DNA of 54,001 nucleotides. Origin: an uncultured Pseudomonadales bacterium (GTDB lineage Bacteria; Patescibacteriota; Microgenomatia; UBA1400; PJMF01). The stretch covers positions 1 through 54,001 of the forward strand of contig CAYUQY010000005.1 in the NCBI GenBank assembly GCA_964447075.1. The letters run 5' to 3'. Position 1 is the stretch's first letter; every line of letters begins with the position of its first letter. Made by a program: the position numbers and the translations under genes. This document shows, one piece after another, positions 6,415-44,433 of the stretch. Below the pieces are notes generated by a model. That model saw nothing but the letters and a program-made list of their open reading frames with translations, searched no databases and had not been told where the DNA came from.

Positions 6415-6472
6415 GTGAGGTATTAATAGTAGCACCTTTTTTGCGCACCACACAATCGGTAGTTTACATTTG

Positions 6473-6559
6473 CGGAAGCGGTGGGAATCGAACCCACGTA
6501 CCCCTTGCGAGGTCCAAGGTTTTCGAGACCTGGCCGATAGGCCGCTCCGGCACGCTTCC
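6473..6559 (-). tRNA. tRNA-Ser(CGA)
   Basis: Acceptor GGAAGCG/CGCTTCC, anticodon loop CT CGA AA in stem AGGT/ACCT, long variable arm, T-arm GTGGG-TTCGATT-CCCAC. Confidence 0.94.
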
Positions 6560-11534: not shown

Positions 11535-11621
11535 GGAGAGTTGGCCGAGCGGTTTATGGCGCTAGTCTTGAAAACTAGTGGGCGCAAGCCCTCGTGGGTT
11601 CGAATCCCTCACTCTCCGCCA
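11535..11621 (+). tRNA. tRNA-Ser(TGA)
   Basis: Acceptor GGAGAGT/ACTCTCC, anticodon arm CTAGT-CT TGA AA-ACTAG, variable arm GGGC-GCAA-GCCC, encoded CCA. Confidence 0.96.
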
Positions 11622-11679: not shown

Positions 11680-12282
11680 ATGTCCACTCAAACTCAAGTC
11701 CCGCAGCAGGAGCCTTCACAACCAAAAAAGCAGATTTTCAGAGCCCTTGAGGCAAAGTCTCTGCGCAATCGATCATCTCTCACGCGCATTGCAGATTACT
11801 TAACAGGTCTTTGTAGCACTCCAACCTTTTTGTTTCTAAACATTCTTCTGTTTGTCACCTGGATTGTTTTAAATCTACAGATTATTCCTAACTTCGCTGC
11901 GTTTGATCCGTACCCATTTGGGTTACTTACCATGGCTGTTTCTCTAGAAGCCATAGTTCTCTCCATTTTTGTGTTGGTTTCCCAAAACAGAGGAGCTCAA
12001 ACTGCAACTCTCAGAGATGAGTTGAATCTACGGATTAATCTTATCGCTGAACGAGAAATAACGAAAACACTACAACTTCTCGTGAAAATTGGGAAAAATA
12101 TGAACATACATGAAAATGATGTTGAGTTAGAAAATATGATCAAGGATATCGACGCAACTGATTTAGAACAAGTTATATTGCAGCAAATTGAGCGGGCTGG
12201 ACAGCCTCGACATAAATTAGTTAAAGGAGAGTTTTCATCAATCATCTCTTCTTTAATTAAACCACTTGTGAAACTCCGATGA
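11680..12282 (+). CDS. DUF1003-family membrane protein
   Basis: FDPYPFGLLTMAVSLEAIVLSIFVLVSQNR motif; true ATG at 11680 (the listed ORF start lies inside the tRNA). Confidence 0.88.
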   Translation: MSTQTQVPQQEPSQPKKQIFRALEAKSLRNRSSLTRIADYLTGLCSTPTFLFLNILLFVTWIVLNLQIIPNFAAFDPYPFGLLTMAVSLEAIVLSIFVLVSQNRGAQTATLRDELNLRINLIAEREITKTLQLLVKIGKNMNIHENDVELENMIKDIDATDLEQVILQQIERAGQPRHKLVKGEFSSIISSLIKPLVKLR

Positions 12283-15029: not shown

Positions 15030-15114
15030 GGAAGTGTCGCCTAGTGGCCTATGGCAGCGGTTTGCTAAATCGCGACTCGTAAGAGTCTCGTGGGTTCGAA
15101 TCCCACCACTTCCG
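15030..15114 (+). tRNA. tRNA-Ser(GCT)
   Basis: Acceptor GGAAGTG/CACTTCC, anticodon arm GCGGT-TT GCT AA-ATCGC, variable arm GACTC-GTAA-GAGTC. Confidence 0.95.
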
Positions 15115-15120
15115 CAAGTA

Positions 15121-24274: not shown

Positions 24275-25732
24275 ATGAGTAGATTTGCCACATTTCTGAA
24301 ACATAAAAAGCCATCTTTCAAGTTTAGCTTTCCTTTAAAAACAACGAAACACTTTCATGGTAAACGAAAGATGCTTTTTAAATCTCTGTCTGCAGTAGTG
24401 TTACTATTGATCCTCGTGGTTGGCGGAGGTTCAGTACAGTATCAGATTGTTCAAGGTTCAGGTTCTAATGGGACCACCTCTCCTGAAAGTTCTGGAAGTA
24501 GTGCCAGCAAAACCTCTCGTGAACCTGTTACCTATTCTTCTTCAGTTGAAGTAATTACTCAAGAATCTTCTTTAAGCGAGCTCGGACTTGAAAGTAGTTC
24601 GTATGCTGGGGAAGTAGTTTCAAAAATGGATAGTAATGTGTACCCTGCCCGGGAAGGCATTATTATAAGTTTGACAGTCAATATTGGTACTCTAGTACGT
24701 CAAGGACAAGTGATTGGCCAGCTCTCTGTCTCCCCTCAGTTTGATCAAATCGCAACTACTGCCGAAAAAAAAGGTGAACTAGAAAATACCCGCGGAAAGC
24801 TTGATGCAATTAATGCTCAACTCAGTGATGTTCAAAATAGACTAAATAATAGGAAATCATCTGCTGATGCCGCTAAGAATGCCAAGGTTAACAATGCAAA
24901 TAATGAATTTAATACTGGAGCAATTACTGTTCAGGAAAAAGAAGAACGCATTAAAGAAGCAGAGTCTGAGTATGCTGAAGTCGTAACCAGTGCTGATAAT
25001 GAGATCTCTTCTCTCTCCAGAGAAAAACGTGAAGCTGAAAAAGAAGTCCAGAGTGCTGAATCTGTTTCAACTGCAGTAATAAAGGGCGTAGATAAAAACA
25101 TCTATGCCACTCGTGGTGGGATAATTTCTGGCATTTTTAAAAATGTTGGTGATTCTGTTGGGCCACAAGATAAAATAGCTGCCATTGGCATAAAAACACC
25201 GACCAAAAAAGATCGTTGTGTACGCTTCAGAATTCCTGGTACTCAAACATTGCCTAAAGTTGATGATATTGTCACCATTTCTCGACCAGGAATGCCTTTG
25301 GCTAAAGAGAAAGCAAAGATTACTGGTGTAGGGACTGCTTTAGATGATAATGGGCACTATGTCGTTGAAGCATTCTTTGAGAAGATTGTCGACTGGCCCG
25401 TTCATAGCTCTGCTCGTGTGCAACTAGATAACCAATTCACTACTCAAATATTTATTCCTCTTTCTGCTGTATGGTTTGATAACGAAGGCATAACGAGTGT
25501 CTGGATTGCTGATAATCAAAATAAAATTACCGCCTATAACGTTAAAACTGGTAGAGCAGTGTCTGACAGGATTGAAATCCTCGAAGGCTTAAGAAAAGAT
25601 GATAAAGTTGTTTTGCGACCTCAGTCTTCTTTTCGCAATGGTGACTTTATTAAAGAAACTGAAGTTAATACTCAACGAAACGCACCTCCTGCAGCAGAAA
25701 GTGCGGGAGACGGTCATGCTCACGAACACTAA
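24275..25732 (+). CDS. RND efflux membrane fusion protein (CusB/CzcB-like)
   Basis: TM anchor, lipoyl-like VYPAREGII...GTLVRQGQVIG, long coiled coil, IPLSAV, VKTG...IEILEGL; His tail GHAHEH. Confidence 0.9.
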   Translation: MSRFATFLKHKKPSFKFSFPLKTTKHFHGKRKMLFKSLSAVVLLLILVVGGGSVQYQIVQGSGSNGTTSPESSGSSASKTSREPVTYSSSVEVITQESSLSELGLESSSYAGEVVSKMDSNVYPAREGIIISLTVNIGTLVRQGQVIGQLSVSPQFDQIATTAEKKGELENTRGKLDAINAQLSDVQNRLNNRKSSADAAKNAKVNNANNEFNTGAITVQEKEERIKEAESEYAEVVTSADNEISSLSREKREAEKEVQSAESVSTAVIKGVDKNIYATRGGIISGIFKNVGDSVGPQDKIAAIGIKTPTKKDRCVRFRIPGTQTLPKVDDIVTISRPGMPLAKEKAKITGVGTALDDNGHYVVEAFFEKIVDWPVHSSARVQLDNQFTTQIFIPLSAVWFDNEGITSVWIADNQNKITAYNVKTGRAVSDRIEILEGLRKDDKVVLRPQSSFRNGDFIKETEVNTQRNAPPAAESAGDGHAHEH

Positions 25733-25787
25733 AGTATTTTTTTTAAAATACTGTGAAGTAAGTAGTATTTATTAAGGAGAGGTCAAA

Positions 25788-26099
25788 ATGAAAAAAAACA
25801 TCCTGATGATTGTAGGAGTCATATTTTTATCTGTATTTCTCTCCGCATGCTCAAATCAAAAACCGGCTACTCCGCAAACAACTCCAACAGCCCAAAAGCA
25901 TGAAGATGGTACAACACATTCTGAAGGTGACTCTCATCAAGATGAGAGTAAGCCTCATGTCGATGCAACTCCTCATGCTAGCCCACAAGCTTCAAGTAGT
26001 CCCGCAACAGATGCAAAAGATGATTCTGGGCGAAAGCCAGCTTCTGTTGGAGATCATAAAGATGAAGTTCCTCATGGTGAGAATGAACCGCACAACTAG
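25788..26099 (+). CDS. His/Asp-rich lipoprotein
   Basis: Lipobox LSAC; low-complexity body with HEDG, HSEGDSH, PHVD, HKDEVPH. Confidence 0.8.
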   Translation: MKKNILMIVGVIFLSVFLSACSNQKPATPQTTPTAQKHEDGTTHSEGDSHQDESKPHVDATPHASPQASSSPATDAKDDSGRKPASVGDHKDEVPHGENEPHN

Positions 26100-26131
26100 A
26101 AGTAATTAATTTTACCTATACCTGTAGCTTT

Positions 26132-29100
26132 ATGCTGAATACTATTATCAGATTCTCTCTTGTCTACCGTTGGCTCGTCTTTGGATTAACTGGTGTGATT
26201 GTTGTAGTGGGCATGTGGAGTCTCATGACCATGAAAGTTGATGTTCTTCCGGACATCAATAAACCTACTGTTTCAGTTTTCACTGAAGGCGAAGGAATGG
26301 CTGCGGAAGAAGTAGAACAACTTATATTAGGTCAGGTGGAAGCAGCGGTAGCAGGCGCTCCTGGAGTAACACGTGTACGGAGTACTGCTTCGTTCGGATT
26401 AGCAATTGTAAATGCTGAGTTTGAATGGGGTACTGATATATATAGAAATCGACAAATTATTCAGGAACGTTTAGCTAATTTGAATCTACCAGGTGATGCC
26501 AGACCCGTCTTGGGTCCAGTTTCTTCAATCATGGGAGAAATTATGTGGGTAGGAATTACTGATGATACTCTCAAGACTAGCCCGATGGAGTTGCGTAGCT
26601 TGGCTGATTGGACGATTCGACCCGCCTTACTACGAGTAGAAGGCATTTCAGACGTTATTATCATGGGTGGAGACGTAAAAGAATGGCAAGTAAATCTTAA
26701 TGCTGAGCTTATGAGGAAGCAAGGAATCGGCTCTGAAGATGTTGTAGCAGCTGTAGAAGGTGCTTTAAGTAATAAAAGCGGTGGCCTATTGGTTCAAGGA
26801 AGTAAAGAATATCCTATTCGAATCATGGCACAGCCTTCTCAAGTGTCTGATCTAGAAAATATCACCCTTGAAACTAAGTCTGGAGACACTCTTAGGCTAG
26901 TTGATATTGCCCAATTAGTAGAGAGGCCAAGTTTAGTACGAGGAGCTGCGAGTGTAGATGGAAAACCAGGAGTAGTCCTCAGAATAGCCAAACAACCTGA
27001 TGCTGAGACTCTAATAGTAACGCAAAGCGTCGATGATGTCTTAAAAAATTTAGAGAAAAGTTTGCCACCAGGTGTAAAACTTCAGAATGATCTTTTCCGA
27101 CAAGAATGGTTTATTAATCAAGGTTTGAAGAACGTAATTGAGGGATTACGCGACGGAACTATCTTTGTGGTAATTGTGTTTATTTTATTTATCATGAACA
27201 TGAGAGTAACCTTTATTACTCTCACAGCCATTCCGCTTAGTATATTAGTAACTGCCATCGTCTTTCGCTTCTTTGAGTTCTCAGTTAATGTGATGACTTT
27301 AGGAGGGATTGCGGTTGCTATTGGCGAGCTTGTTGATGATGCCATTGTGGACGTGGAAAATGTGTTTGAACGCTTAAAAGAGTGGCGTGCGAATGGCATG
27401 AAGAAAGACCCACTAGAAGTAGTGTTTGAAGCTTCAAGTGAAGTGAGAAACTCGATTGTCTATTCAACTATTTTAGTGGCAATTGTCTTCTTACCTCTTT
27501 TCTTTTTACCTGGGGTCGAAGGAAGGTTAATTGCTTCTTTAGGCGCTGCCTACTTAATTTCACTTTTAGCATCTTTGCTTATTTCACTCACAGTCACCCC
27601 CGCTCTCTCTTTAGTCCTGCTTGCTGGTAAATCAAATAAATCTAAAAAAAATGATGATTATGCTGATAAGAAAGAAGCTGATACTAAAGTCGTAGCATTC
27701 TTAAAAAAACGGTTTACCCCAATGGTGCTGTGGGGGATTAACCACTCAACTACTCTAATTGGTACTACTTTAATAGCTGTCATTATTTCAGTGGTGATGT
27801 TAGCTATGGCAGGAAAAGAAGGTATTCCCCCATTTAATGAAGGATCTGCCACTATTTCAGTCATTTTACCAGTAGGAACAGATCTAGATACTTCAAATCG
27901 GTTTGCTACTCGAGTAGAAAATGATATTAAAAAAATTGATGGTGTTATCCGAGTAAGTCATCTTACAGGCAGGGCTAGCGCTGATCCTCATGATTCTGGG
28001 GCAAACTCAAGCGAGATTCAAGTTACCTTTGAACCTGGAAGAGAAAAAGAGACTGAGAAATTCTTTGAAAAAATTCAAAAGGTTTTAGAAACTTACCCGA
28101 GCGCAGATTTTTCTTTAGGACAGCCAATCACTCATAGAGTTGAGGAACTTCTCTCTGGTGTCAGAGCACCGATTGTGGTCAAAGTCTTTGGAGATAACCT
28201 TCAAGATCTACGGGACACTGCAGAAATGGTACGTGCTGAGTTTGCTAAAAATCCTGAGGTAAAAAATCCTCAACTGCAAAAAGAAGTGCTCGTTCCTGAG
28301 TTCAGGATATATATAAACCACCAAGAATTAGCAAATTACAATGTCTCAGCTTCACATCTTGGTGAAGAACTAGAAAATGGTTTATTAGGTGCAACAGCTG
28401 GGCAAGTACAGATCGGTGCTGCCAGAACAGACGTAGTGGTACGTTACGATGCAATCTCTAGAGGCAACTCGTACGCATTGAGAGATCTCACCTTACCATT
28501 TGAAGGACTTAATTCACTCTCTGGAGGTGCTACAGATATTCGTCTGGAAGGTGGTAGGAATAAATTCAGTCATGAGGGCGGTAAAAGAACGCTCACGGTT
28601 TCAGCTAATTATCAGGGATCTGACATTGTGGGTGCGGTTGAACAAGTTAAAACATCTCTAGAACAAAAGCAATTACCCATAGGGACTACTCTCTCTTATG
28701 AGGGTACGTATAAAAGTTCAAAAGAAAATACCCAACGCCTCGCAGTCATGTTTATTATCGGTATTATTTCCATATTTGTGGTTTTAAACAGAGCCTTCAA
28801 CTCTTCACGAATAGCACTTCTCATCATGGTCAATATTCCTTTGGTGGCTATTGGTGGTGTTGTAGCTGTCTACTTGACCGGAAGAATTGTTAATCTGGCA
28901 CATCTCGTAGGTTTTATCTCACTGGCAGGAGTTGTTTCGAGAAATGGGATCATGCTGGTTAGTCACTGCATCCAACTCATAAGAAAAGAGGGAAAACCTT
29001 TTTCTAAGGAAACAATAGTGGAAGCTACTGAAGATAGATTAGTCCCAATACTGATGACTGCTATAGTTGCTGCTTTAGGCCTTATTCCACTGATTATTAC

Positions 29101-29326
29101 TGGTAAAGAGCCGGGTAAAGAACTTTTATACCCTTTGGCAAATATCGTATTTGGTGGTGTGATGTCTTCAACTTTAATTTCTCTTTTCTTAACTCCAGCA
29201 TTATTTTATAGATTTGGAAAAGGGTACTTTAGTTCAAATGACGATTCCTCGATTTTTTCAAAGTCTAGAGAATCAACAAAGCACGCCTTAGAACGAATAA
29301 AGGCACGGTTTAAAAGACCTAAGTGA
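26132..29326 (+). CDS. CusA/CzcA-family heavy-metal RND permease
   Basis: 1064 aa; VDVLPDIN, NVMTLGGIAVAIGELVDDAIVDVEN, LFFLPGVEGRL, RNGIMLV, RLVPILMTA. Confidence 0.95.
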   Translation: MLNTIIRFSLVYRWLVFGLTGVIVVVGMWSLMTMKVDVLPDINKPTVSVFTEGEGMAAEEVEQLILGQVEAAVAGAPGVTRVRSTASFGLAIVNAEFEWGTDIYRNRQIIQERLANLNLPGDARPVLGPVSSIMGEIMWVGITDDTLKTSPMELRSLADWTIRPALLRVEGISDVIIMGGDVKEWQVNLNAELMRKQGIGSEDVVAAVEGALSNKSGGLLVQGSKEYPIRIMAQPSQVSDLENITLETKSGDTLRLVDIAQLVERPSLVRGAASVDGKPGVVLRIAKQPDAETLIVTQSVDDVLKNLEKSLPPGVKLQNDLFRQEWFINQGLKNVIEGLRDGTIFVVIVFILFIMNMRVTFITLTAIPLSILVTAIVFRFFEFSVNVMTLGGIAVAIGELVDDAIVDVENVFERLKEWRANGMKKDPLEVVFEASSEVRNSIVYSTILVAIVFLPLFFLPGVEGRLIASLGAAYLISLLASLLISLTVTPALSLVLLAGKSNKSKKNDDYADKKEADTKVVAFLKKRFTPMVLWGINHSTTLIGTTLIAVIISVVMLAMAGKEGIPPFNEGSATISVILPVGTDLDTSNRFATRVENDIKKIDGVIRVSHLTGRASADPHDSGANSSEIQVTFEPGREKETEKFFEKIQKVLETYPSADFSLGQPITHRVEELLSGVRAPIVVKVFGDNLQDLRDTAEMVRAEFAKNPEVKNPQLQKEVLVPEFRIYINHQELANYNVSASHLGEELENGLLGATAGQVQIGAARTDVVVRYDAISRGNSYALRDLTLPFEGLNSLSGGATDIRLEGGRNKFSHEGGKRTLTVSANYQGSDIVGAVEQVKTSLEQKQLPIGTTLSYEGTYKSSKENTQRLAVMFIIGIISIFVVLNRAFNSSRIALLIMVNIPLVAIGGVVAVYLTGRIVNLAHLVGFISLAGVVSRNGIMLVSHCIQLIRKEGKPFSKETIVEATEDRLVPILMTAIVAALGLIPLIITGKEPGKELLYPLANIVFGGVMSSTLISLFLTPALFYRFGKGYFSSNDDSSIFSKSRESTKHALERIKARFKRPK

Positions 29327-33445: not shown

Positions 33446-34145
33446 CTACCTCAATTTAATGTATCTCTCACTATGCTTGCCAGATTTCTCATGCGTAATG
33501 CTATCAAAAATCACCTGCCACTGGGGTCTATCGGCAGCAGCAAACTGTGATGGGTAATGATCTACCAAGTATTGATTCCTCCTGGCTCTGTCAACAGGTG
33601 ACAACTCCACCCTATGAGTAACTTCACTAGTTCTCTTACTTGTCCACAAGTATAATTCTGGCCTTTTTTGGAGTGGCTTACGATGGGGCAGGAAATATCG
33701 CACATCAGCGGCAGCCCCTACATACTTGGCCACCTGTCCCGCCACGTTATGATCAGGATGATCGATAAAAGGAGTGTTCTCGTATGGATCAAAAGAAAAA
33801 ATAGCATCAGTATCACTCTTGCTGACTATCGGCATGACTGCTCCAACCAGATCTTTTAATGGAATAGAAGGCAAACCTAAATCGGGAAAGCTCAAAATCG
33901 TCAAGCTAGCCGTCAAACTCTCCATGGCACGCTTGGCCTCCTCTGCGCGAACCTGAGCCATCTCTGGTGGAGTGAGACTCGATCTCTGTGGAATTCCCAA
34001 CTCACCAACGGTCAGAAAAATTATATGGGGGCTAACTCCAGCTTTGACAAAGACACTCCACAGCTCCAAAAAATGGAGCCTCATCGTCCGGGTGGGCCAG
34101 GATAAAAGTGGGATTGTTAAGATGTCTTACAGTTAGTTCTTTCAT
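33446..34145 (-). pseudogene. PIG-L family deacetylase, frameshifted
   Basis: ATG at 34145 with SD AAAGGA gives MKELT...FILAHPDDEAPFF, then stops. The remainder (LTVGELG, FPDLGL, DHPDHNVAG, HYPSQF) is in another frame; an A6/T6 tract at 34068-34073 lies at the shift. Confidence 0.8.
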
Positions 34146-34180
34146 AGATCTTTCCTTTTTATAAAAAATAATATTTTTTT

Positions 34181-34209
34181 AACAAAAAAACCCGCCTCTC
34201 CGGACGGGT
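34181..34209 (-). terminator. Intrinsic terminator in the PIG-L leader
   Basis: Minus strand ACCCGTC-CGGAGA-GGCGGGT followed by TTTTTTGTT, about 40 nt upstream of the PIG-L ATG. Confidence 0.8.
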
Positions 34210-34231
34210 GTTAGACACAGCTGTCCAGAGA

Positions 34232-34279
34232 CTATATTTCTATATTCTGGCAACAACAACTGGTGAGATAAGCGAACAT
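34232..34279 (-). CDS. Putative attenuator leader peptide MFAYLTSCCCQNIEI
   Basis: 15 codons with TGT TGT TGC at 34258-34250; TATAAT lies 6 nt upstream of the ATG; overlaps alternative hairpins. Confidence 0.7.
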   Translation of the reverse strand: MFAYLTSCCCQNIEI

Positions 34280-34377
34280 AAGATGATTATAAGCTAAATT
34301 TAGAATTACATCAGCTACAAAATACGCCTCCAAAACTTTTACTGATTACAAAAACTAAGGTATATGTAAGTACCAGC

Positions 34378-38508: not shown

Positions 38509-40743
38509 TCATTTTTTTTCAAAACTTTCCCACAACATCTTCGCCACTCCAAGCGCAGTACCGTCAAAGACTGATTGGCGCTTTACCCTCAACCCCAAAG
38601 TCTCAGATTGTATCCTAGCTAAGTCATCATTCTGACTCATGCCGCCGTCTAGCCAAACTTCTCTTGGCTTAATTGGGCACTTGGCGATAGCATAAGCTAC
38701 TTTACTAGAAATTTCTTTCCAAATAGGTATCAGATCTTCTCCACTATCTAGTAGTGCTTGAACCCTTTGACCATACACACCTACTTTTGCTTCGACTCCA
38801 TAGAGTACTTGCGAGGAGCTGGAGGGTAAAAGGGTCGTAAACCAGCTGTCGAAAAGCTGGAACTGCGCACCAATCACCTGGACGACAAATGTGCCAGTGC
38901 CGTAGGTCACTTTAGTCATACCTGGCTCCATCTCAGCAATAGCGCAGCTAGCTTGTTGGTCTCCGCAAACTACTTCGACGCTCAGAGACTTTCCAAAAAC
39001 AGACTCATTGGTAGACCCAAAATGAGAAATAGAGCTTTGAGTCTTGGACAAGATGTTTGAGGGAACCTCGAAGATTTGACCAAGCCTCTCACTCCACCCC
39101 TGAGTCTGAATATCAAAAAGCAGAGTTCTGGCAGCATTTGTCGTATCTGTTACAAAAATGTTTTGATTTGTCTCAGGATTTTTTTTCAGCCAGTGCCAAA
39201 GGAGCCAACTATCTAAAGTTCCGATCGCCAGAGAGCCTGTGCTAGCCAGCTGTGCTGCTAACAAATTATTTTTCAGTAGCCAACTTATTTTTGAAGCAGA
39301 GAAGTAAGGCAAAATAGGTAAGCCCGTGCGCTCTCTGACTTCTTGTCCAAATTGAGAGTTTAAAAGTAGACACTCATCTTTAGTTCTTTCATCTTCCCAG
39401 ACTATCGCCGTGGTGACAGCCTGACCGGTTTTTTTATCCCAAGCCACGACTGTCTCTCTTTGGTTGGTCAAGCCCATGGCTAAAACAGGCACTGTCACGC
39501 CTTCCAAAACTTGACGAGCCACCAAGCGACTTTTCTCAAGAATTTCATGGGGGGACTGCTCCACCCAACCAAGCAGTGACACATGTTTTTCCAAGCGTAA
39601 ATATGATTTTTTAAGTAGCTTCAAATCACGACTAAAAAGACAAGCTTTGACACCAGTCGTGCCCACATCTATGACGAGCATTAATGCATCTAAAGAGTTG
39701 GAGACTATGTTACTCTCCTGAAATCCAGTAATCTTACTTTCCTCATTTTTAACTTTTTCTGAAGATGAAAAACTGCTGGTCATACTCCTGAGTGGTACGA
39801 GCATGCTAGACATAGTAGTAATCAACCTAGTTAGAGAAGCCAGTACTGCAGTCTTTTCTACTAAAATATTTTCTATGGCTTCTAAAAGTGGTAAGTCTGT
39901 CTGAGGTCGACTTCTAATCAGCTGCAACAAAGAAGGAAGCGACCGAGTACCCTCACTAGGCTTATACTCATGCCCCAAAGCAATATCGACTCCAGTTCGA
40001 TGATTTTGTGAGTCACTACTTAGTCCAGTAGCGACTAAGTCACCGACTCCAGCACTTGTCAAAACAAGTGATGGATCACCACCTAATATCTTTACCACCT
40101 GCTGCATCTCTATTATGCAGCGACTGATCAGCCAACCAGCTCGATTTGCACCCCAGTCTAGACCACTTGCCATACCCAGTAAAACAGCATAGATATTTTT
40201 CAAAACTCCCAAGAGAGCAATGGTGTGCACATCTTCATAGAACTCGAATCCAACTTTATTTTTAGAGAAAAAAGATTTGAGGTTCGCGGCTAGATTTTGA
40301 TCACTTGTGGCCACAACTGCTTGCCCACCCTTGCCTGCCATAAGCTCTTCAGCGATAAGCGGGCCGTAGAGCAGCCCCCAACTTTGGCTCGAAGGCAGCA
40401 GCCTAGATAACTCCTGATCTATGGTGAGTCCAGTTCCTGGAGTAATGCCTTTTGCCAGACACACCACGCCTGTCTCTGACTTTAAGTCAGGCAAGATTTG
40501 ACGAATCACCTCTGGAACTGCAGGTGATGGCACACATAAAAAAATTACGTCAGCTTTTTGTACCGCATCAGTGAGTGTGGTGATACCACTGCACTTAACT
40601 GGAGTTCGATCCCAGATACAGACATTCGCTCCTGATGAATTTATGAGGGTGGCTAAGGCTCGACCTATTTCACCTGAGCCAAGAATCAAAACAGATGATA
40701 CATGGGCAGTACTATCCAGCATTATGGCTCTATTGTGACACAA
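38509..40743 (-). CDS. Fusion of NAD(P)H-dependent glycerol-3-phosphate dehydrogenase and FGGY glycerol kinase
   Basis: N-half GSGEIG, LAKGI, GPLIAEE, LKNIYA, AGVGDLVAT (GpsA-like); C-half IDVGTTG, TNQRET, WEDERT, YFSASK, TDTTNAART, GDQQA, TYGTG (GlpK-like). The start is uncertain (alternative ATG 40722). Confidence 0.88.
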   Translation of the reverse strand: MCHNRAIMLDSTAHVSSVLILGSGEIGRALATLINSSGANVCIWDRTPVKCSGITTLTDAVQKADVIFLCVPSPAVPEVIRQILPDLKSETGVVCLAKGITPGTGLTIDQELSRLLPSSQSWGLLYGPLIAEELMAGKGGQAVVATSDQNLAANLKSFFSKNKVGFEFYEDVHTIALLGVLKNIYAVLLGMASGLDWGANRAGWLISRCIIEMQQVVKILGGDPSLVLTSAGVGDLVATGLSSDSQNHRTGVDIALGHEYKPSEGTRSLPSLLQLIRSRPQTDLPLLEAIENILVEKTAVLASLTRLITTMSSMLVPLRSMTSSFSSSEKVKNEESKITGFQESNIVSNSLDALMLVIDVGTTGVKACLFSRDLKLLKKSYLRLEKHVSLLGWVEQSPHEILEKSRLVARQVLEGVTVPVLAMGLTNQRETVVAWDKKTGQAVTTAIVWEDERTKDECLLLNSQFGQEVRERTGLPILPYFSASKISWLLKNNLLAAQLASTGSLAIGTLDSWLLWHWLKKNPETNQNIFVTDTTNAARTLLFDIQTQGWSERLGQIFEVPSNILSKTQSSISHFGSTNESVFGKSLSVEVVCGDQQASCAIAEMEPGMTKVTYGTGTFVVQVIGAQFQLFDSWFTTLLPSSSSQVLYGVEAKVGVYGQRVQALLDSGEDLIPIWKEISSKVAYAIAKCPIKPREVWLDGGMSQNDDLARIQSETLGLRVKRQSVFDGTALGVAKMLWESFEKK

Positions 40744-41737: not shown

Positions 41738-42229
41738 TTACTCTACAGATTTTACCAAGTAACTTACCTCTCCATTGGGAGTTGTGACTTTTACTTCATC
41801 GCCCTCTTTTTTTCCTAAGGTAGCGGCTCCTATAGGACTTTGCAGAGAGAGCTTATGAGCAGTGGGATCTGACTCGTGCTCGCTCACGAGCATGAACTTC
41901 AGCTCTGTCTTTTTAACTTTATGGACTAGCGTGACTGTACTCCCAAAATCTATCTCCTTCGATCCATGATTAACCTCTGGAACGTATCCCTCAGACAGAA
42001 CATGCTCTAGGTAGCGCAAGCGTCTAGTCACGTTGCCTAACTCAAGCTTGGCGTAGATATAAGCACCATTTTCAGAAAGGTCGCCCATCTCACGAGCAGT
42101 CTGCAGCCTCACTATAACGTCTTTGCGCTCCTGTGTTAGGCGCTCAAAATCGAGACTGTTCTTAGCGTAAGCTGCAGCTGTAAAGGGAATTTTAGAAGAC
42201 AAATTATTTTTTGGACCATAGGACAACAT
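41738..42229 (-). CDS. greA: Transcription elongation factor GreA
   Basis: AREMGDLSENGAY, IDFGSTV, LSLQSPIGAATLGKKEGD, TPNG. Confidence 0.95.
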   Translation of the reverse strand: MLSYGPKNNLSSKIPFTAAAYAKNSLDFERLTQERKDVIVRLQTAREMGDLSENGAYIYAKLELGNVTRRLRYLEHVLSEGYVPEVNHGSKEIDFGSTVTLVHKVKKTELKFMLVSEHESDPTAHKLSLQSPIGAATLGKKEGDEVKVTTPNGEVSYLVKSVE

Positions 42230-42452
42230 GTCCCATGACTGCCATTGCTACCAAGGCCCAACCGAAAACATCAAGATTTGGTAGAGCAAGATAGTGAGTC
42301 ATGAGCATTCCTAAGCCAATTCCTCCTGTGACGTGTATGATACCGCACCAACTGGTACAACAGTTACCGCAGTTATTGCAGTCGAAGCAAGATGGGGCAC
42401 TCATTGCTGAGCTTCTTGATGATTTGGTTGTTTTACTTTTACGTGCAGGCAT
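42204..42452 (-). CDS. Small Cys-rich membrane protein
   Basis: 82 aa; CFDCNNCGNCC..WC followed by two TM helices; preceded by AAGGAG. Confidence 0.7.
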   Translation of the reverse strand: MPARKSKTTKSSRSSAMSAPSCFDCNNCGNCCTSWCGIIHVTGGIGLGMLMTHYLALPNLDVFGWALVAMAVMGHVVLWSKK

Positions 42453-42635: not shown

Positions 42636-43919
42636 ATGCCCAACGTTTCACCAAGTCTTTCACCTCTCATAAAACCTAGAAGACGCGTCTGTATGATCTC
42701 GTTCCACACCTGTCCACTCGCGAGTCAGGAAGGTAAAGAAAGTGGTGGCATGAATGTCTATGTTTTAGAACTTGCTAAGCAACTTTGTGCCCAGGGCCAC
42801 ACTGTAGACATCTACACTAGAACTCAAGAGGTCAACAATAATGGCGTAGTCCAAGTAGCCGAAAGATTACGAGTCATACATCTCATGGCAGGATCGCACT
42901 ACCAGCTTCCTAAGAATCAGCTTTTAACCGTCTCTGATGACTTTGTCGTTTCTTTCACCAAGTTTATTCAAGATAATGTTCTAGAGTACGACATACTTCA
43001 CTGTCACTACTACCTATCAGGATTCATAGGCTTACAAATTAAACAAGCCTTGGACTGGAGTACACCTTTAGTATTCACTTTTCACACACTTGCTCTGATA
43101 AAGAACTTAGTAGCTCGCAGTACGTCAGAACAAGAAACTCCTGAAAGAATTTCCAACGAGCTACTTCTTGGCTCCAAGGTGGACGCCATCATCAGTCCCA
43201 GCGAAAACGAGAGAGAGTATCTTACTCACCTCTACGGAGTAGCGCCACGAAAAATTAACATCGTCCCTCCAGGTGTGGACCTTAATCTTTTTAAGCCTAT
43301 GTCAAAAGCTACTGCTAAAAATAAAATTGGCGCAGACTTGAATCACAAAATAATTCTCTTTGCCGGACGAATCGAACCACTCAAAGGTATCGACTCCATA
43401 CTCTACGCCACGAGAATCTTACTCTCCAAAAGTCCTGAACTAGCGCCTCTTTGCGTCTGGATTGTGGGCGGAGACGTCTCCCAACCCAAGTACCTCTGGT
43501 CTGACGAACTAAAGAGACTAGAGAAGTTACGTGCCCAACTTGGTCTTACTTTTTATGTTCACTTTGCGGGACAGAATAAACAAGAGGATCTCCCCTATTT
43601 TTACAATGCGGCCGAAGTGGTCGTCATGCCCTCACACTATGAGTCTTTTGGCATGGCTGCTGCCGAGAGCTTGGCATGCGGTACACCAGTGATTACCACA
43701 AATCTAACTGGTATCTCAAACCTCTTTGACAACAAACACCAGCACTTAATAACCTCTGCTAATAATCCTCTACTTCTAGCTAAGCTTATGGAGCAAATTC
43801 TATCTGGCGCAAGCACACATTCAGCCGCTCAATTAAGAGAAACAGTGGCTGACTTAGATTGGAGTAGTACCGCTGCTAAAGTAGTCAAAGTGTACGATGA
43901 CTTGTTACCGACAAAGTAA
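42636..43919 (+). CDS. GT4 glycosyltransferase, MshA-like
   Basis: HTCPLA...SGGMNVYV, HCHYYLSG, HTLALIKN, GRIEPLKG, MPSHYESFGMAAAE. Confidence 0.88.
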   Translation: MPNVSPSLSPLIKPRRRVCMISFHTCPLASQEGKESGGMNVYVLELAKQLCAQGHTVDIYTRTQEVNNNGVVQVAERLRVIHLMAGSHYQLPKNQLLTVSDDFVVSFTKFIQDNVLEYDILHCHYYLSGFIGLQIKQALDWSTPLVFTFHTLALIKNLVARSTSEQETPERISNELLLGSKVDAIISPSENEREYLTHLYGVAPRKINIVPPGVDLNLFKPMSKATAKNKIGADLNHKIILFAGRIEPLKGIDSILYATRILLSKSPELAPLCVWIVGGDVSQPKYLWSDELKRLEKLRAQLGLTFYVHFAGQNKQEDLPYFYNAAEVVVMPSHYESFGMAAAESLACGTPVITTNLTGISNLFDNKHQHLITSANNPLLLAKLMEQILSGASTHSAAQLRETVADLDWSSTAAKVVKVYDDLLPTK

Positions 43920-43926
43920 AAAAAAT

Positions 43927-44433
43927 ATGACAAAAACTTTCTACTTATTTCGTCATGGCTTAGCTCGACTGCCAGGTCAAGACTACGGTGATGAAATTTT
44001 CTCAGCTGAGCTGGTTCCTGAAGGGATTCCGCCAATTGAGAGAATGGGCAAGTTTTTGGCACATGAAATGATCGAGGCTTGTTTCACTTCGCCATTTAGA
44101 AGGTGCTTACAAACTGCTGAAATTTTGAAACAAGCTGGGGTCAGAGAGTTCAAAACTGAAGAAAGACTCAAGGAATACGGCCCTGACCAAGAACACAACC
44201 TGCACGAGAATTTTGATCAATTTATGATCAGGATGCATGACGTGGCCAACTTTATTCGTGGTCTGGAGGCTGCCAAGATTGCTCTCTGCACCCATGGCTC
44301 TGTCGTGGCATGCCTGGCTAGACTTCTGGCTGATCGCGAGTTTACCCTAGACAACCTCCATGAATTTCCAAATCCAGGCGAGATAAAGATCTTGACTCCT
44401 AGAGGTGTAGAATACAGGGACTTCAGAAACTAA
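43927..44433 (+). CDS. Histidine phosphatase family protein
   Basis: FRHG, SPFRRCLQTA, RLKE, THG; ATG at 43927. Confidence 0.9.
   Translation: MTKTFYLFRHGLARLPGQDYGDEIFSAELVPEGIPPIERMGKFLAHEMIEACFTSPFRRCLQTAEILKQAGVREFKTEERLKEYGPDQEHNLHENFDQFMIRMHDVANFIRGLEAAKIALCTHGSVVACLARLLADREFTLDNLHEFPNPGEIKILTPRGVEYRDFRN

Follow-up and report, generated by a model that had tools for sequence, protein, structure and literature searches.

A candidate cysteine-reading attenuator leader upstream of a PIG-L deacetylase gene that changes frame at a Cys codon in Patescibacteria

On the minus strand of the window (the whole stretch of DNA analyzed here, 54,001 nucleotides [nt]), a short leader region is flanked by a gene for a DUF2177 membrane protein (34776-34378), with a TspO gene upstream of the latter, and by a gene for a PIG-L/LmbE deacetylase. 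The leader region contains a small open reading frame (sORF) with three tandem Cys codons and a hairpin followed by a U-tract, and the deacetylase gene behind it is divided between two reading frames at a site that holds a further Cys codon. The locus is probably a ribosome-mediated transcription attenuator that reads the supply of charged tRNA-Cys and is coupled to a second Cys-codon device within the regulated gene. This reading is built on conserved leaders and terminators, a covarying antiterminator, and a two-frame gene with a near-invariant shift site and a well-formed trans-frame product. The assignment of the host to the Candidate Phyla Radiation (CPR) held: the adjacent ABC-F protein is 70-72% identical to proteins of Candidatus Woesebacteria, Pacebacteria, and Roizmanbacteria, and the relatives of the PIG-L protein come from metagenome-assembled genomes of the 'Patescibacteria group' and 'Pacebacteria'.

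All window coordinates given for the leader and the PIG-L gene are on the minus strand (Table 1). A TATAAT box is separated from the leader ATG (34279) by a spacer of 6 nt (34285-34280), and no Shine-Dalgarno (SD) sequence lies ahead of this ATG. In a pattern search, MFAYLTSCCCQNIEI was the sole sORF in the 54-kb window that starts in a TATAAT-ATG arrangement and contains a pair of adjacent Cys residues (CC). The first part of segment 2, TCTCTGGAC (34231-34223), begins on the base after the leader stop. The terminator consists of ACCCGTC-CGGAGA-GGCGGGT (34209-34190) and T7 (34189-34183), and it ranks first among the terminator-like matches in the 8 kb scanned. The minimum-free-energy (MFE) fold of the free RNA includes the 1:2 hairpin CCAGA...UCUGG with a UAUA-GAAA-UAUA tip, lengthened by an outer stem, ACCAGUUGU/ACAGCUG.GU, that takes in all three Cys codons. 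In the alternative 2:3 pairing, TCTCTGGAC:GTCCGGAGA (34231-34223 with 34205-34197) forms an antiterminator duplex of 9 bp (eight Watson-Crick pairs and one G-U pair) with -15.4 kcal/mol, which is stronger than 99.3% of the 16-nt windows in the surrounding 2 kb. A preliminary description, made from the letters of the sequence, had proposed this hairpin, this antiterminator, and this terminator with its U-tract; each of its coordinates was correct, and sequence reading and folding reproduced the anatomy base for base, with the outer stem as an extension of the hairpin.

Table 1. Positions of leader and PIG-L features in the window, and the leader peptides of the related loci
Feature	Position	Strand	Remarks
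-10 box TATAAT	34286..34291	-	putative promoter of the leaderless type; sequence read; 6 nt 5' of leader ATG
Leader ORF MFAYLTSCCCQNIEI and stop	34232..34279	-	15 codons plus TAG stop (34234-34232)
Three tandem Cys codons TGT TGT TGC	34250..34258	-	codons 8-10; proposed sensor
Segment 1 (anti-antiterminator 5' arm)	34246..34264	-	MFE folds; overlaps Cys codons; partner 34229-34215
Segment 2	34215..34231	-	alternative partners: segment 1 or segment 3
Segment 3, GTCCGGAGA	34197..34205	-	last 3 nt of terminator 5' arm plus loop; antiterminator partner of segment 2
Intrinsic terminator (predicted)	34183..34209	-	7-bp GC-rich stem, 6-nt loop, U7
Ribosome-binding site AAGGAAAG and PIG-L ATG (34145)	34143..34157	-	sequence read
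PIG-L ORF1, frame 0, MKELTVRHLNNPTFILAHPDDEAPFFGAVECLCQSWS and stop	34032..34145	-	carries the catalytic/metal-binding AHPDDE motif
Frameshift cassette GGAG-UGU-CUU-UGU	34047..34059	-	SD-like element, E-site Cys, slippery Leu CUU (34052-34050), A-site Cys UGU (34049-34047)
PIG-L ORF2, frame +1, VKAGVSPHIIFLTVGELG...HPDH...RPELYLW...YPSQF...KLR and stop	33446..34048	-	read from GTC at 34048
Leader peptide, window			MFAYLTSCCCQNIEI
Leader peptide, L006			MKISRFIHCCHKGTA
Leader peptide, L014			MTISMICSCCLKGIC
Leader peptide, L017			MTITYISTSCCCPGAT
Leader peptide, L018			MKVQETISCCKGSSR
Leader peptide, L019			MNTLQECMSCCKGLDL
Leader peptide, L010/11			MNSKKTTLSCCVRPKL
Leader peptide, L012			MKKTKLFTNCCINPLK
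Leader peptide, L013			MPKKLFSHNSCCCPSQFKEGDSCCRKLTK
Leader peptide, L023			MEIILRNNFVCCCTFRNVGKVYLYVK

We compared 19 distinct related PIG-L loci, mostly from Patescibacteria metagenomes, of which 16 have the +1 split (39-61% identity) and three are unshifted relatives. A family-alignment scan of metagenomes gave five loci, and most loci were fetched protein by protein; the 19 are the sample examined. Directly upstream of PIG-L, 10 of the 19 loci have a short ORF with two or three tandem Cys codons, followed by a hairpin and U6-8. The preliminary description had staked its proposal on Cys codons in orthologous leaders, and this comparison left it standing. Tandem Cys is the only feature common to all 10 leader peptides; K/P-G after the Cys run recurs in five, and no tandem repeat of any other amino acid was found across the 10 leaders. 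Cys makes up 29 of their 179 residues (16%), versus 0.7% in the long ORFs of the window, and CC is present in just 2% of random ATG-started sORFs of 12-30 codons from the window. The binomial probability of finding a tandem-Cys sORF with a terminator at 10 of 19 loci is ~1e-12, with homologous loci treated as independent. In eight of the 10 leaders, exactly five codons separate the stop from the nearest Cys pair, the exceptions being L017 (four codons) and L023 (13 codons).

The layout TAnnnT-N6-9-ATG is found in eight of the 10 leaders, and in seven the distance from the -10 box to the ATG is 6-8 nt without an SD sequence; the L018 and L013 leaders may carry a few nt of 5' untranslated region. 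This layout suggests that the leader would be translated from a leaderless mRNA. The terminator stem at all 10 leaders is GC-rich, spans 5-9 bp, and has U6-8 immediately after it. The terminator ends 13-40 nt upstream of the PIG-L start in the window, L006, L014, L017, L018, L019, and L023, and the gap is likewise short in the distant locus L024, so that there is no room for a second promoter in these loci. The gene upstream of the leader is divergent in L006, L014, and L019, where the terminator therefore cannot end the transcript of another gene. The genes flanking leader and PIG-L differ between loci, and no conserved gene neighborhood hinting at the pathway of the enzyme was found across them. 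In the window and all fetched loci, no other poly-Cys leaderless sORF was found outside the PIG-L leaders, bar probable chance matches inside coding regions. Two further observations concern single leaders. An in-frame extension of the L018 leader to 29 codons (1531-1620, +; MLVFLFICCILGIIMKVQETISCCKGSSR) adds a second CC pair and resembles the two Cys clusters of L013. L024 (1881-1990, +), an unshifted relative of 35% identity, has an SD-led leader of 20 codons with a single Cys codon (...KACLATPS and stop), a repeat resembling an antiterminator (GAGAGGTT), and a strong terminator that is separated from the gene start by 5 nt (ATTGT), in an attenuator topology.

The pairings of the antiterminator were counted by script on an anchor-based register; a MAFFT alignment of the segment-2-to-terminator region misregistered two sequences. 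At eight core loci, the equivalent of segment 2 begins 0-4 nt past the leader stop, and this strand, CTCTTGGAY (CTTGGGT in L010 and L012), pairs over 7-9 bp with the last 3 nt of the terminator 5' arm and the loop. A change of the terminator stem from CCGTC/GACGG to CCACC/GGTGG is accompanied by a change in segment 2 from GGAC/GGAT to GGGT. Within the antiterminator, A-U becomes G-C at pair 8 and C-G becomes U-A at pair 9, with G-U intermediates present, and the same two segment-3 nucleotides go from G-C to A-U and from U-A to C-G in their terminator pairs. At antiterminator pairs 1-4 (loop and segment 2), both sides differ between the window and the other loci, and pairing is kept. The segment 2:3 duplex was unusually stable in eight of nine loci tested (Fisher combined P ~1e-7, the loci being homologous). 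These substitutions provide good but not overwhelming support for covariation of the antiterminator with the terminator. L013 and L023 have different sequences with the same topology, namely a segment 1 rich in C/U directly behind CCC, a segment 2 rich in G, and a terminator arm rich in C.

The ribosome was modeled as a 28-nt footprint on the RNA, which was then refolded. The terminator formed in all 10 leaders when the RNA carried no ribosome and also when the footprint covered the stop codon. When a Cys codon occupied the A site, the antiterminator was the MFE structure in the window (-17.0 kcal/mol), L014, L017, L010, L013, and L023, and the terminator and antiterminator states tied in L018. 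In the window, L017, L013, and L023, segment 1 comes after the Cys codons and shows clear 1:2 pairing. In L006, L014, L018, and L019 it precedes them by 10-15 nt, where the stalled footprint has its trailing edge, and in L010 and L012 it is weak. The constrained folding, the compensatory antiterminator changes, and the tandem-Cys leaders at orthologues thus support the trp/his-type switching logic that had been put forward for the window. A search of Rfam returned no known family for the window leader (gathering threshold and a permissive E-value) or for the ten related loci (gathering threshold), only chance terminator-like matches with E>2 and tRNAs; T-box and riboswitch readings of the leader were dropped on account of this result.

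The attenuator would presumably operate as follows. Transcription would begin ~7 nt past TATAAT, with the RNA 5' end at or beside the leader AUG, and a 70S ribosome would read the 15-codon leader as RNA polymerase proceeds. When Cys-tRNA is plentiful, the ribosome would reach the UAG, its footprint would hide segment 2, segment 3 would pair with segment 4, and the hairpin with U7 would stop transcription before PIG-L. With no ribosome on the RNA, segment 1 would take segment 2 and the terminator would form again. When Cys-tRNA is scarce, a ribosome stalled on codons 8-10 would hide segment 1, and segment 2 would stay exposed and pair with the distal part of the terminator 5' arm and the loop once these are made; no terminator would form, and the polymerase would enter the PIG-L gene. 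Leaderless initiation, termination and antitermination in vivo, and a response to cysteine are what this arrangement of sequence elements would predict.

The regulated gene carries the second device. The preliminary description was right in naming a PIG-L gene, which matches PF02585, but it overlooked the interruption of this gene by a +1 frame change. Frame 0 from 34145 encodes ...ILAHPDDEAPFFGAVECLCQSWS and meets a stop at 34034-34032. In 16 of the 19 loci (the window, L001-L004, L006, L010, L012, L014, and L016-L022), and in 16 of the 17 close loci, the gene switches frame at the same codon, with the AHPDDE part in frame 0 and the remainder in frame +1. The shift interval is 11 nt long (ACTGTCTTTGT), bounded by frame +1 stops in L001 and L002 and by frame 0 stops in six loci. 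The 9-mer UGU-CUU-UGU is 88-100% identical over the 16 loci, all three synonymous positions included, and other third codon positions average 62%. The slippery codon is CUU-U in 15 of the 16 loci and UUU-U in L006, with an invariant third position, and a synonymous Leu codon in place of CTT was never seen at the shifted loci. GGAG is located 3 nt 5' of CUU in nine of the 16 loci, and GGNN has that spacing in 13; the same bases encode conserved residues (L-E/D). The codon before CUU is UGU in 14 loci and U-purine-U (UGU or UAU) in 15. The A-site codon is UGU (Cys) in all 16, with a frame 0 stop 0-4 codons later, and a stop codon (UAA or UGA) is never used in the A site at these loci. The frameshift falls at codon 32 of the 232-codon trans-frame reading in the window and at codons 30-36 in most loci. 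No conserved 3' stimulatory structure was found (alifold 0.0 kcal/mol, z-scores near 0).

When CUU is read, one U is skipped, and reading resumes at GUN, the products align gap-free to the unshifted proteins P0026, P0027, P0031, and P0036, and also to the solved diacetylchitobiose deacetylase (Dac). The AlphaFold2 (AF2) model of the window's trans-frame product, for which database proteins served as alignment input, has a pLDDT of 95.8 and a pTM of 0.92, and the junction L32/V33 lies inside helix 23-34. Gene callers start the proteins of shifted loci at an ATG inside GAT-GAx of HPDDE and lose AHPDDE; in practice the family is systematically mis-annotated as N-terminally truncated, about two thirds of the 55 family representatives (E<1e-10) being gene calls without the N-terminus. 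Other origins of the split were rejected. Transcriptional slippage or a homopolymer error does not fit, because the upstream T-runs lack conservation and are cut off from the junction by frame +1 stops; pseudogenization is excluded by the comparative data on the split loci; and an independent start of the C-terminal part at the ATG inside GAT-GAx is excluded by in-frame stops after that ATG in L001, L002, L010, and L012.

We consider it very probable, from the comparison of these sequences, that the +1 frameshifting as such is programmed; it is a new instance of a rare mechanism. From the full-length mRNA, PIG-L would be made only by the +1 shift at GGAG-UGU-CUU-UGU, at which the peptidyl-tRNA-Leu would slip from CUU to UUU while the 0-frame A-site UGU (Cys) awaits decoding. 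Without the slip, translation would end five codons later and release a 37-residue fragment.

Leader and shift site are distributed such that every one of the 19 loci has one or both: eight have leader and shift site, eight have the shift site only, and three, all unshifted, have the leader only. The leaders of the unshifted genes contain CCC in two cases and a single Cys codon in L024. Outside the shift site, the 16 trans-frame proteins have two Cys in 3720 residues versus ~26 expected from the frequency in the window proteome, and four unshifted relatives have none. A vacant A site at UGU would give the peptidyl-tRNA-Leu time for the slip from CUU to UUU, both devices titrating Cys-tRNA; slow decoding of UGU would drive the slip, and frameshifting would also rise when Cys-tRNA is low. 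We give cysteine-responsive frameshifting close to an even chance. Our broader proposal is more tentative and may well fail in some of its parts: the site would be the first natural hungry-codon programmed frameshift that senses an amino acid, with full-length PIG-L produced only under a shortage of Cys-tRNA; the shift would be stacked on the leader as an AND-like gate in about half of the lineages; and the enzyme would serve Patescibacteria in a response to cysteine starvation, its substrate possibly being a GlcNAc-containing thiol or a precursor of such a thiol.

The joined product matches the Pfam PIG-L profile PF02585 with 71.2 bits (cut-off 28.2) over profile positions 2-125 of 129, and positions 2-19 are matched only when ORF1 is joined to ORF2. 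The closest solved folds are the archaeal Dac enzymes (TM 0.81-0.84), followed by LnmX, BC1534, MshB, TT1542, and BshB (TM 0.67-0.75 for BshB, BC1534, and MshB). Bit scores against NCBIfam models all stay below the equivalog cut-offs (BshB1, 32.9 versus 182.5; Mca, 23.1 versus 277; BshB2, 18.9 versus 195). The enzyme thus resembles the PIG-L/LmbE deacetylases (Dac, MshB, BshB, Mca, LnmX, and TT1542) in its PF02585 match, its Dac-like fold, and its AHPDDE and HPDH motifs, which are invariant in the family alignment, and it differs from them in being only 20-22% identical to Dac, in scoring below the BshB1, Mca, and BshB2 cut-offs, and in having conserved C-terminal motifs of its own, RPELYLW and YPSQF. 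No exact match to the window's own PIG-L ORF is on record. A role in cysteine salvage, suggested in the preliminary description, found no support here, the closest folds being Dac and the MshB/BshB/Mca matches lying far below their cut-offs; it is speculation.

Two genes elsewhere in the window touch on the substrate of such an enzyme. A GT4 gene at 42636-43919 (+), 8 kb from the leader, matches MshA (D-inositol-3-phosphate glycosyltransferase, TIGR03449) over its full length with 308 bits (cut-off 462), and its scores for other GT4 families are about 107 bits or less. A histidine-phosphatase-superfamily gene (43897-44433, +) overlaps it. These matches offer one lead toward a thiol connection, since an MshB-like enzyme could receive a substrate of the GlcNAc-inositol type from the two gene products; nothing resembling MshC or MshD was seen in the window. 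An unannotated 82-codon ORF (42204-42452, -) is situated between the MshA-like gene and greA; the small protein that it encodes has Cys residues clustered near the N-terminus (CFDCNNCGNCCTSWC) and is hydrophobic in its C-terminal half.

Other explanations of the locus have to be weighed against a cysteine-reading attenuator. The two-frame PIG-L gene might be a pseudogene or an assembly or sequencing error, with a terminator that merely ends the upstream DUF2177 transcript; in the window, a T6 run is located 20 nt upstream of the junction, deletion of one T restores the frame too, and the upstream gene is on the same strand. The comparative data already refute this explanation, whose probability we regard as negligible: 16 independently assembled loci of 39-61% protein identity share the +1 split down to the codon, both halves are under purifying selection, frame +1 stops between the homopolymer region and the junction exclude a shift there in L001, L002, L010, and L012, and the upstream gene is divergent in L006, L014, and L019. 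It is also improbable that leader and hairpin act post-transcriptionally, on PIG-L translation initiation or mRNA stability, as in mycobacterial poly-Cys sORFs. Nothing is known about intrinsic termination in Patescibacteria, and the sole experimentally dissected poly-Cys leaderless sORF sequesters a Shine-Dalgarno sequence (10.1101/834739), but the hairpins of all 10 leaders have the canonical terminator form, with a GC-rich stem and an immediate U-tract, and the PIG-L SD sequence lies 25-35 nt past the hairpin and is not paired with the leader in the predicted folds. That the sORF encodes a functional Cys micropeptide with its own terminator, PIG-L being expressed independently, or that the element senses general translation status, we consider highly improbable. 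Except for the tandem Cys, the leaders vary freely in both sequence and composition, even though small Cys-rich peptides exist and K/P-G follows the Cys run in five leaders (the enzyme itself shows 39-61% identity). A promoter for independent expression could be held by the 70-100 nt AT-rich spacer past the terminator of L010, L012, and L013, whereas in seven of the 10 tandem-Cys loci the PIG-L start comes 13-40 nt past the terminator with no promoter-like sequence between. In addition, a covarying antiterminator would be purposeless in a plain peptide gene, the element accompanies PIG-L through unrelated neighborhoods, and no second amino acid occurs in tandem across the leaders.

The attenuator coupled to a cysteine-reading shift site remains our preferred reading, and several observations weigh against it. 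The window leader alone folds no better than shuffled sequences (z = -1.42; 18 of 200 shuffles fold as well or better), and the case for significance rests on the comparison with other loci. There, the covariation consists of few independent events, essentially two clades and the window, and the position of segment 1 is not conserved. The terminator stays the equilibrium MFE structure in L006, L019, and L012 even with a ribosome stalled on Cys; antitermination in these three would have to be kinetic, a plausible course given that RNA polymerase makes segments 2 and 3 ahead of segment 4. Eight orthologous loci are without any leader, the distant L024 leader holds one Cys codon only, and a cysteine-related role of the enzyme is not established, given its Dac folds and low MshB/BshB/Mca scores. 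The A-site UGU may be incidental, U being needed by the slippery site and GU being the first bases of the +1-frame Val codon, so that conservation of UGU alone is no proof of cysteine sensing; and the Cys codon just before CUU must still be decoded under starvation. The attenuator could also be real and the +1 frameshift constitutive with a set ratio, or tolerated, UGU being a by-product and cysteine being sensed only by the leader where present. This is a serious contender, which we put somewhat below an even chance. It draws on the constraint on all three UGU bases by the slippery site and the +1-frame Val (GUN), and on the eight loci without a leader, which may not be cysteine-regulated; furthermore, +1 shifting at sense codons is usually inefficient as long as the tRNA is not limiting (see PMC5009743). 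It accounts less well for an early shift (codon 32 of 232), which the recoding review cited below describes as typical of sensor-type frameshifts, for UGU as the codon before CUU in 14 of 16 loci although this codon is synonymous-free and Cys is absent there from the unshifted relatives, and for a rest of the enzyme that is Cys-free but for the two residues counted above. Each locus has a Cys-codon device, and unshifted genes always have a leader. An A-site stop (UAA or UGA), expected to be most efficient for a constitutive shift as in prfB, is never used.

The proposed attenuator resembles the classical ones (trp, his, leu, thr, pheA, and ilv of Proteobacteria, and trp of Corynebacterium and Streptomyces) in having a short leader ORF with tandem codons of one amino acid and an intrinsic terminator, an antiterminator that uses the terminator 5' arm, a segment further upstream that would keep the antiterminator paired except where a stalled ribosome covers it, and ribosome position as the readout. 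Here, in contrast, cysteine would be sensed, the leader is of the leaderless type, segment 2 comes right after the stop, the target is the single PIG-L deacetylase gene and no operon for biosynthesis of the sensed amino acid, and the host belongs to the Patescibacteria (CPR). The mycobacterial polycysteine sORFs that make up the 'Cys ribulon' (Canestrari et al., 2020, bioRxiv 10.1101/834739; Mol Microbiol 114:93) likewise have at least two consecutive Cys codons; they are leaderless, as is predicted here, and act as a Cys-tRNA sensor for a downstream gene, the role proposed for the PIG-L leaders. The dissected mycobacterial case is translational, with an RNA duplex that hides the SD sequence and without a terminator, whereas the present locus has a hairpin and U-tract terminator and a covarying antiterminator, the SD sequence is not involved, and the sequences are not homologous. 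The M. smegmatis mshA operon is itself preceded by a poly-Cys sORF (10.1101/834739); mshA is in a mycobacterial target operon, and an MshA-like glycosyltransferase lies 8 kb away in the window. For Rhodobacterales, the uORFC-8-2 motif in front of cysS has been predicted to attenuate transcription through tandem Cys codons (Brewer et al., 2021, PMC8632094). In Actinobacteria, Cys leader peptides without terminators have been described ahead of cys/cbs (Seliverstov et al., 2005, PMC1262725). These too are predicted to be ribosome-mediated and have two tandem Cys codons in an upstream ORF, and the terminal U-run of uORFC-8-2 fits an intrinsic terminator; they differ in their targets (Cys-tRNA synthetase or cysteine biosynthesis), in their phyla, and in Cys codons at positions 14-15 inside the first stem. 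Of the novelty claimed in the preliminary description, the CPR host and the PIG-L target stand, but the tandem-Cys transcription attenuator has this precedent upstream of cysS.

The release factor 2 gene prfB has the site AGGGGG-UAU-CUU-UGA-C, and the shift in E. coli prfB is at codon 26. The PIG-L site resembles it in the CUU followed by U in the P site, a putative SD-like GGAG/GGNN 3 nt 5' at most loci, the U-purine-U E-site codon, the lack of a 3' stimulatory structure, the early position of the shift (codon 32 here), and a functional protein that would come from shifted ribosomes only. The differences are that the A site here is the sense codon UGU (Cys), so that the titrated factor would be Cys-tRNA and not RF2, that the gene is PIG-L, and that one locus has UUU-U. 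The shifts of yeast Ty1/ABP140/EST3 (CUU-AGG-C) and the hungry-codon shifts of E. coli share with the slip proposed here a peptidyl-tRNA-Leu that slips +1 on CUU and a slow sense codon in the A site; however, in yeast the slow codon is due to a constitutively rare tRNA, and the E. coli shifts were seen on artificial constructs. According to a 2016 recoding review, no natural starvation-induced frameshifting was known to make a functional trans-frame protein (PMC5009743). The attenuator principle is already known, and what is new is the phylum, the combination of a leaderless-type leader with a terminator, the target gene, and above all the coupling with a prfB-like frameshift that has a Cys codon in the A site.

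Leader-peptide attenuation is regarded mainly as a trait of Proteobacteria and some Actinobacteria, and, to our knowledge, almost nothing is known about gene regulation in the CPR. The loci compared here make a covariation-supported case for ribosome position as a metabolite sensor in the reduced genomes of this group, and the compact element of ~100 nt is suited to heterologous or cell-free systems. We also know of few conserved bacterial +1 programmed frameshifts outside prfB; the PIG-L family adds one whose A-site sense codon specifies the amino acid that the leader would sense. If the frameshifting responds to Cys-tRNA, it would answer an open question of the recoding literature ('no examples are known', PMC5009743). 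If the whole proposal is true, the two-step gate would need no regulatory protein, which would fit very small genomes.

Further observations in the window and at related loci concern TATAAT-ATG starts and gene content. A DUF1003 gene at 11680 (+) and a gene for a 117-aa protein at 20697 (+) begin after TATAAT-N6/7-ATG, directly behind tRNA-Ser genes, and the PIG-L orthologues without a leader in L002, L016, and L020 show the same TATAAT-ATG arrangement. These starts suggest that leaderless mRNAs may be used more widely in the host genome. Six tRNA-Ser genes are spread over 21 kb (176-261, 2051-2135, and 6472-6559 on the minus strand; 11535-11621, 15030-15115, and 20594-20679 on the plus strand), with the anticodons GGA, AGA, CGA, TGA, GCT, and ACT, one per Ser codon box member; among them, AGA and ACT have A34, an uncommon feature in bacteria. 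The genes in 18306-29326 encode a cupredoxin and a CueO-like multicopper oxidase, a sensor-repressor pair of the BlaR1/M56-BlaI type, and an RND adaptor together with an RND pump resembling CusA/CzcA. This cluster is suggestive of copper or metal handling and envelope stress, an unusual cargo for a small CPR genome. Finally, in a 744-aa ORF (38509-40743, -), an NAD(P)H glycerol-3-phosphate dehydrogenase resembling GpsA (residues ~15-315) is fused to a glycerol kinase of which the N-terminal two thirds are present (residues ~354-667).

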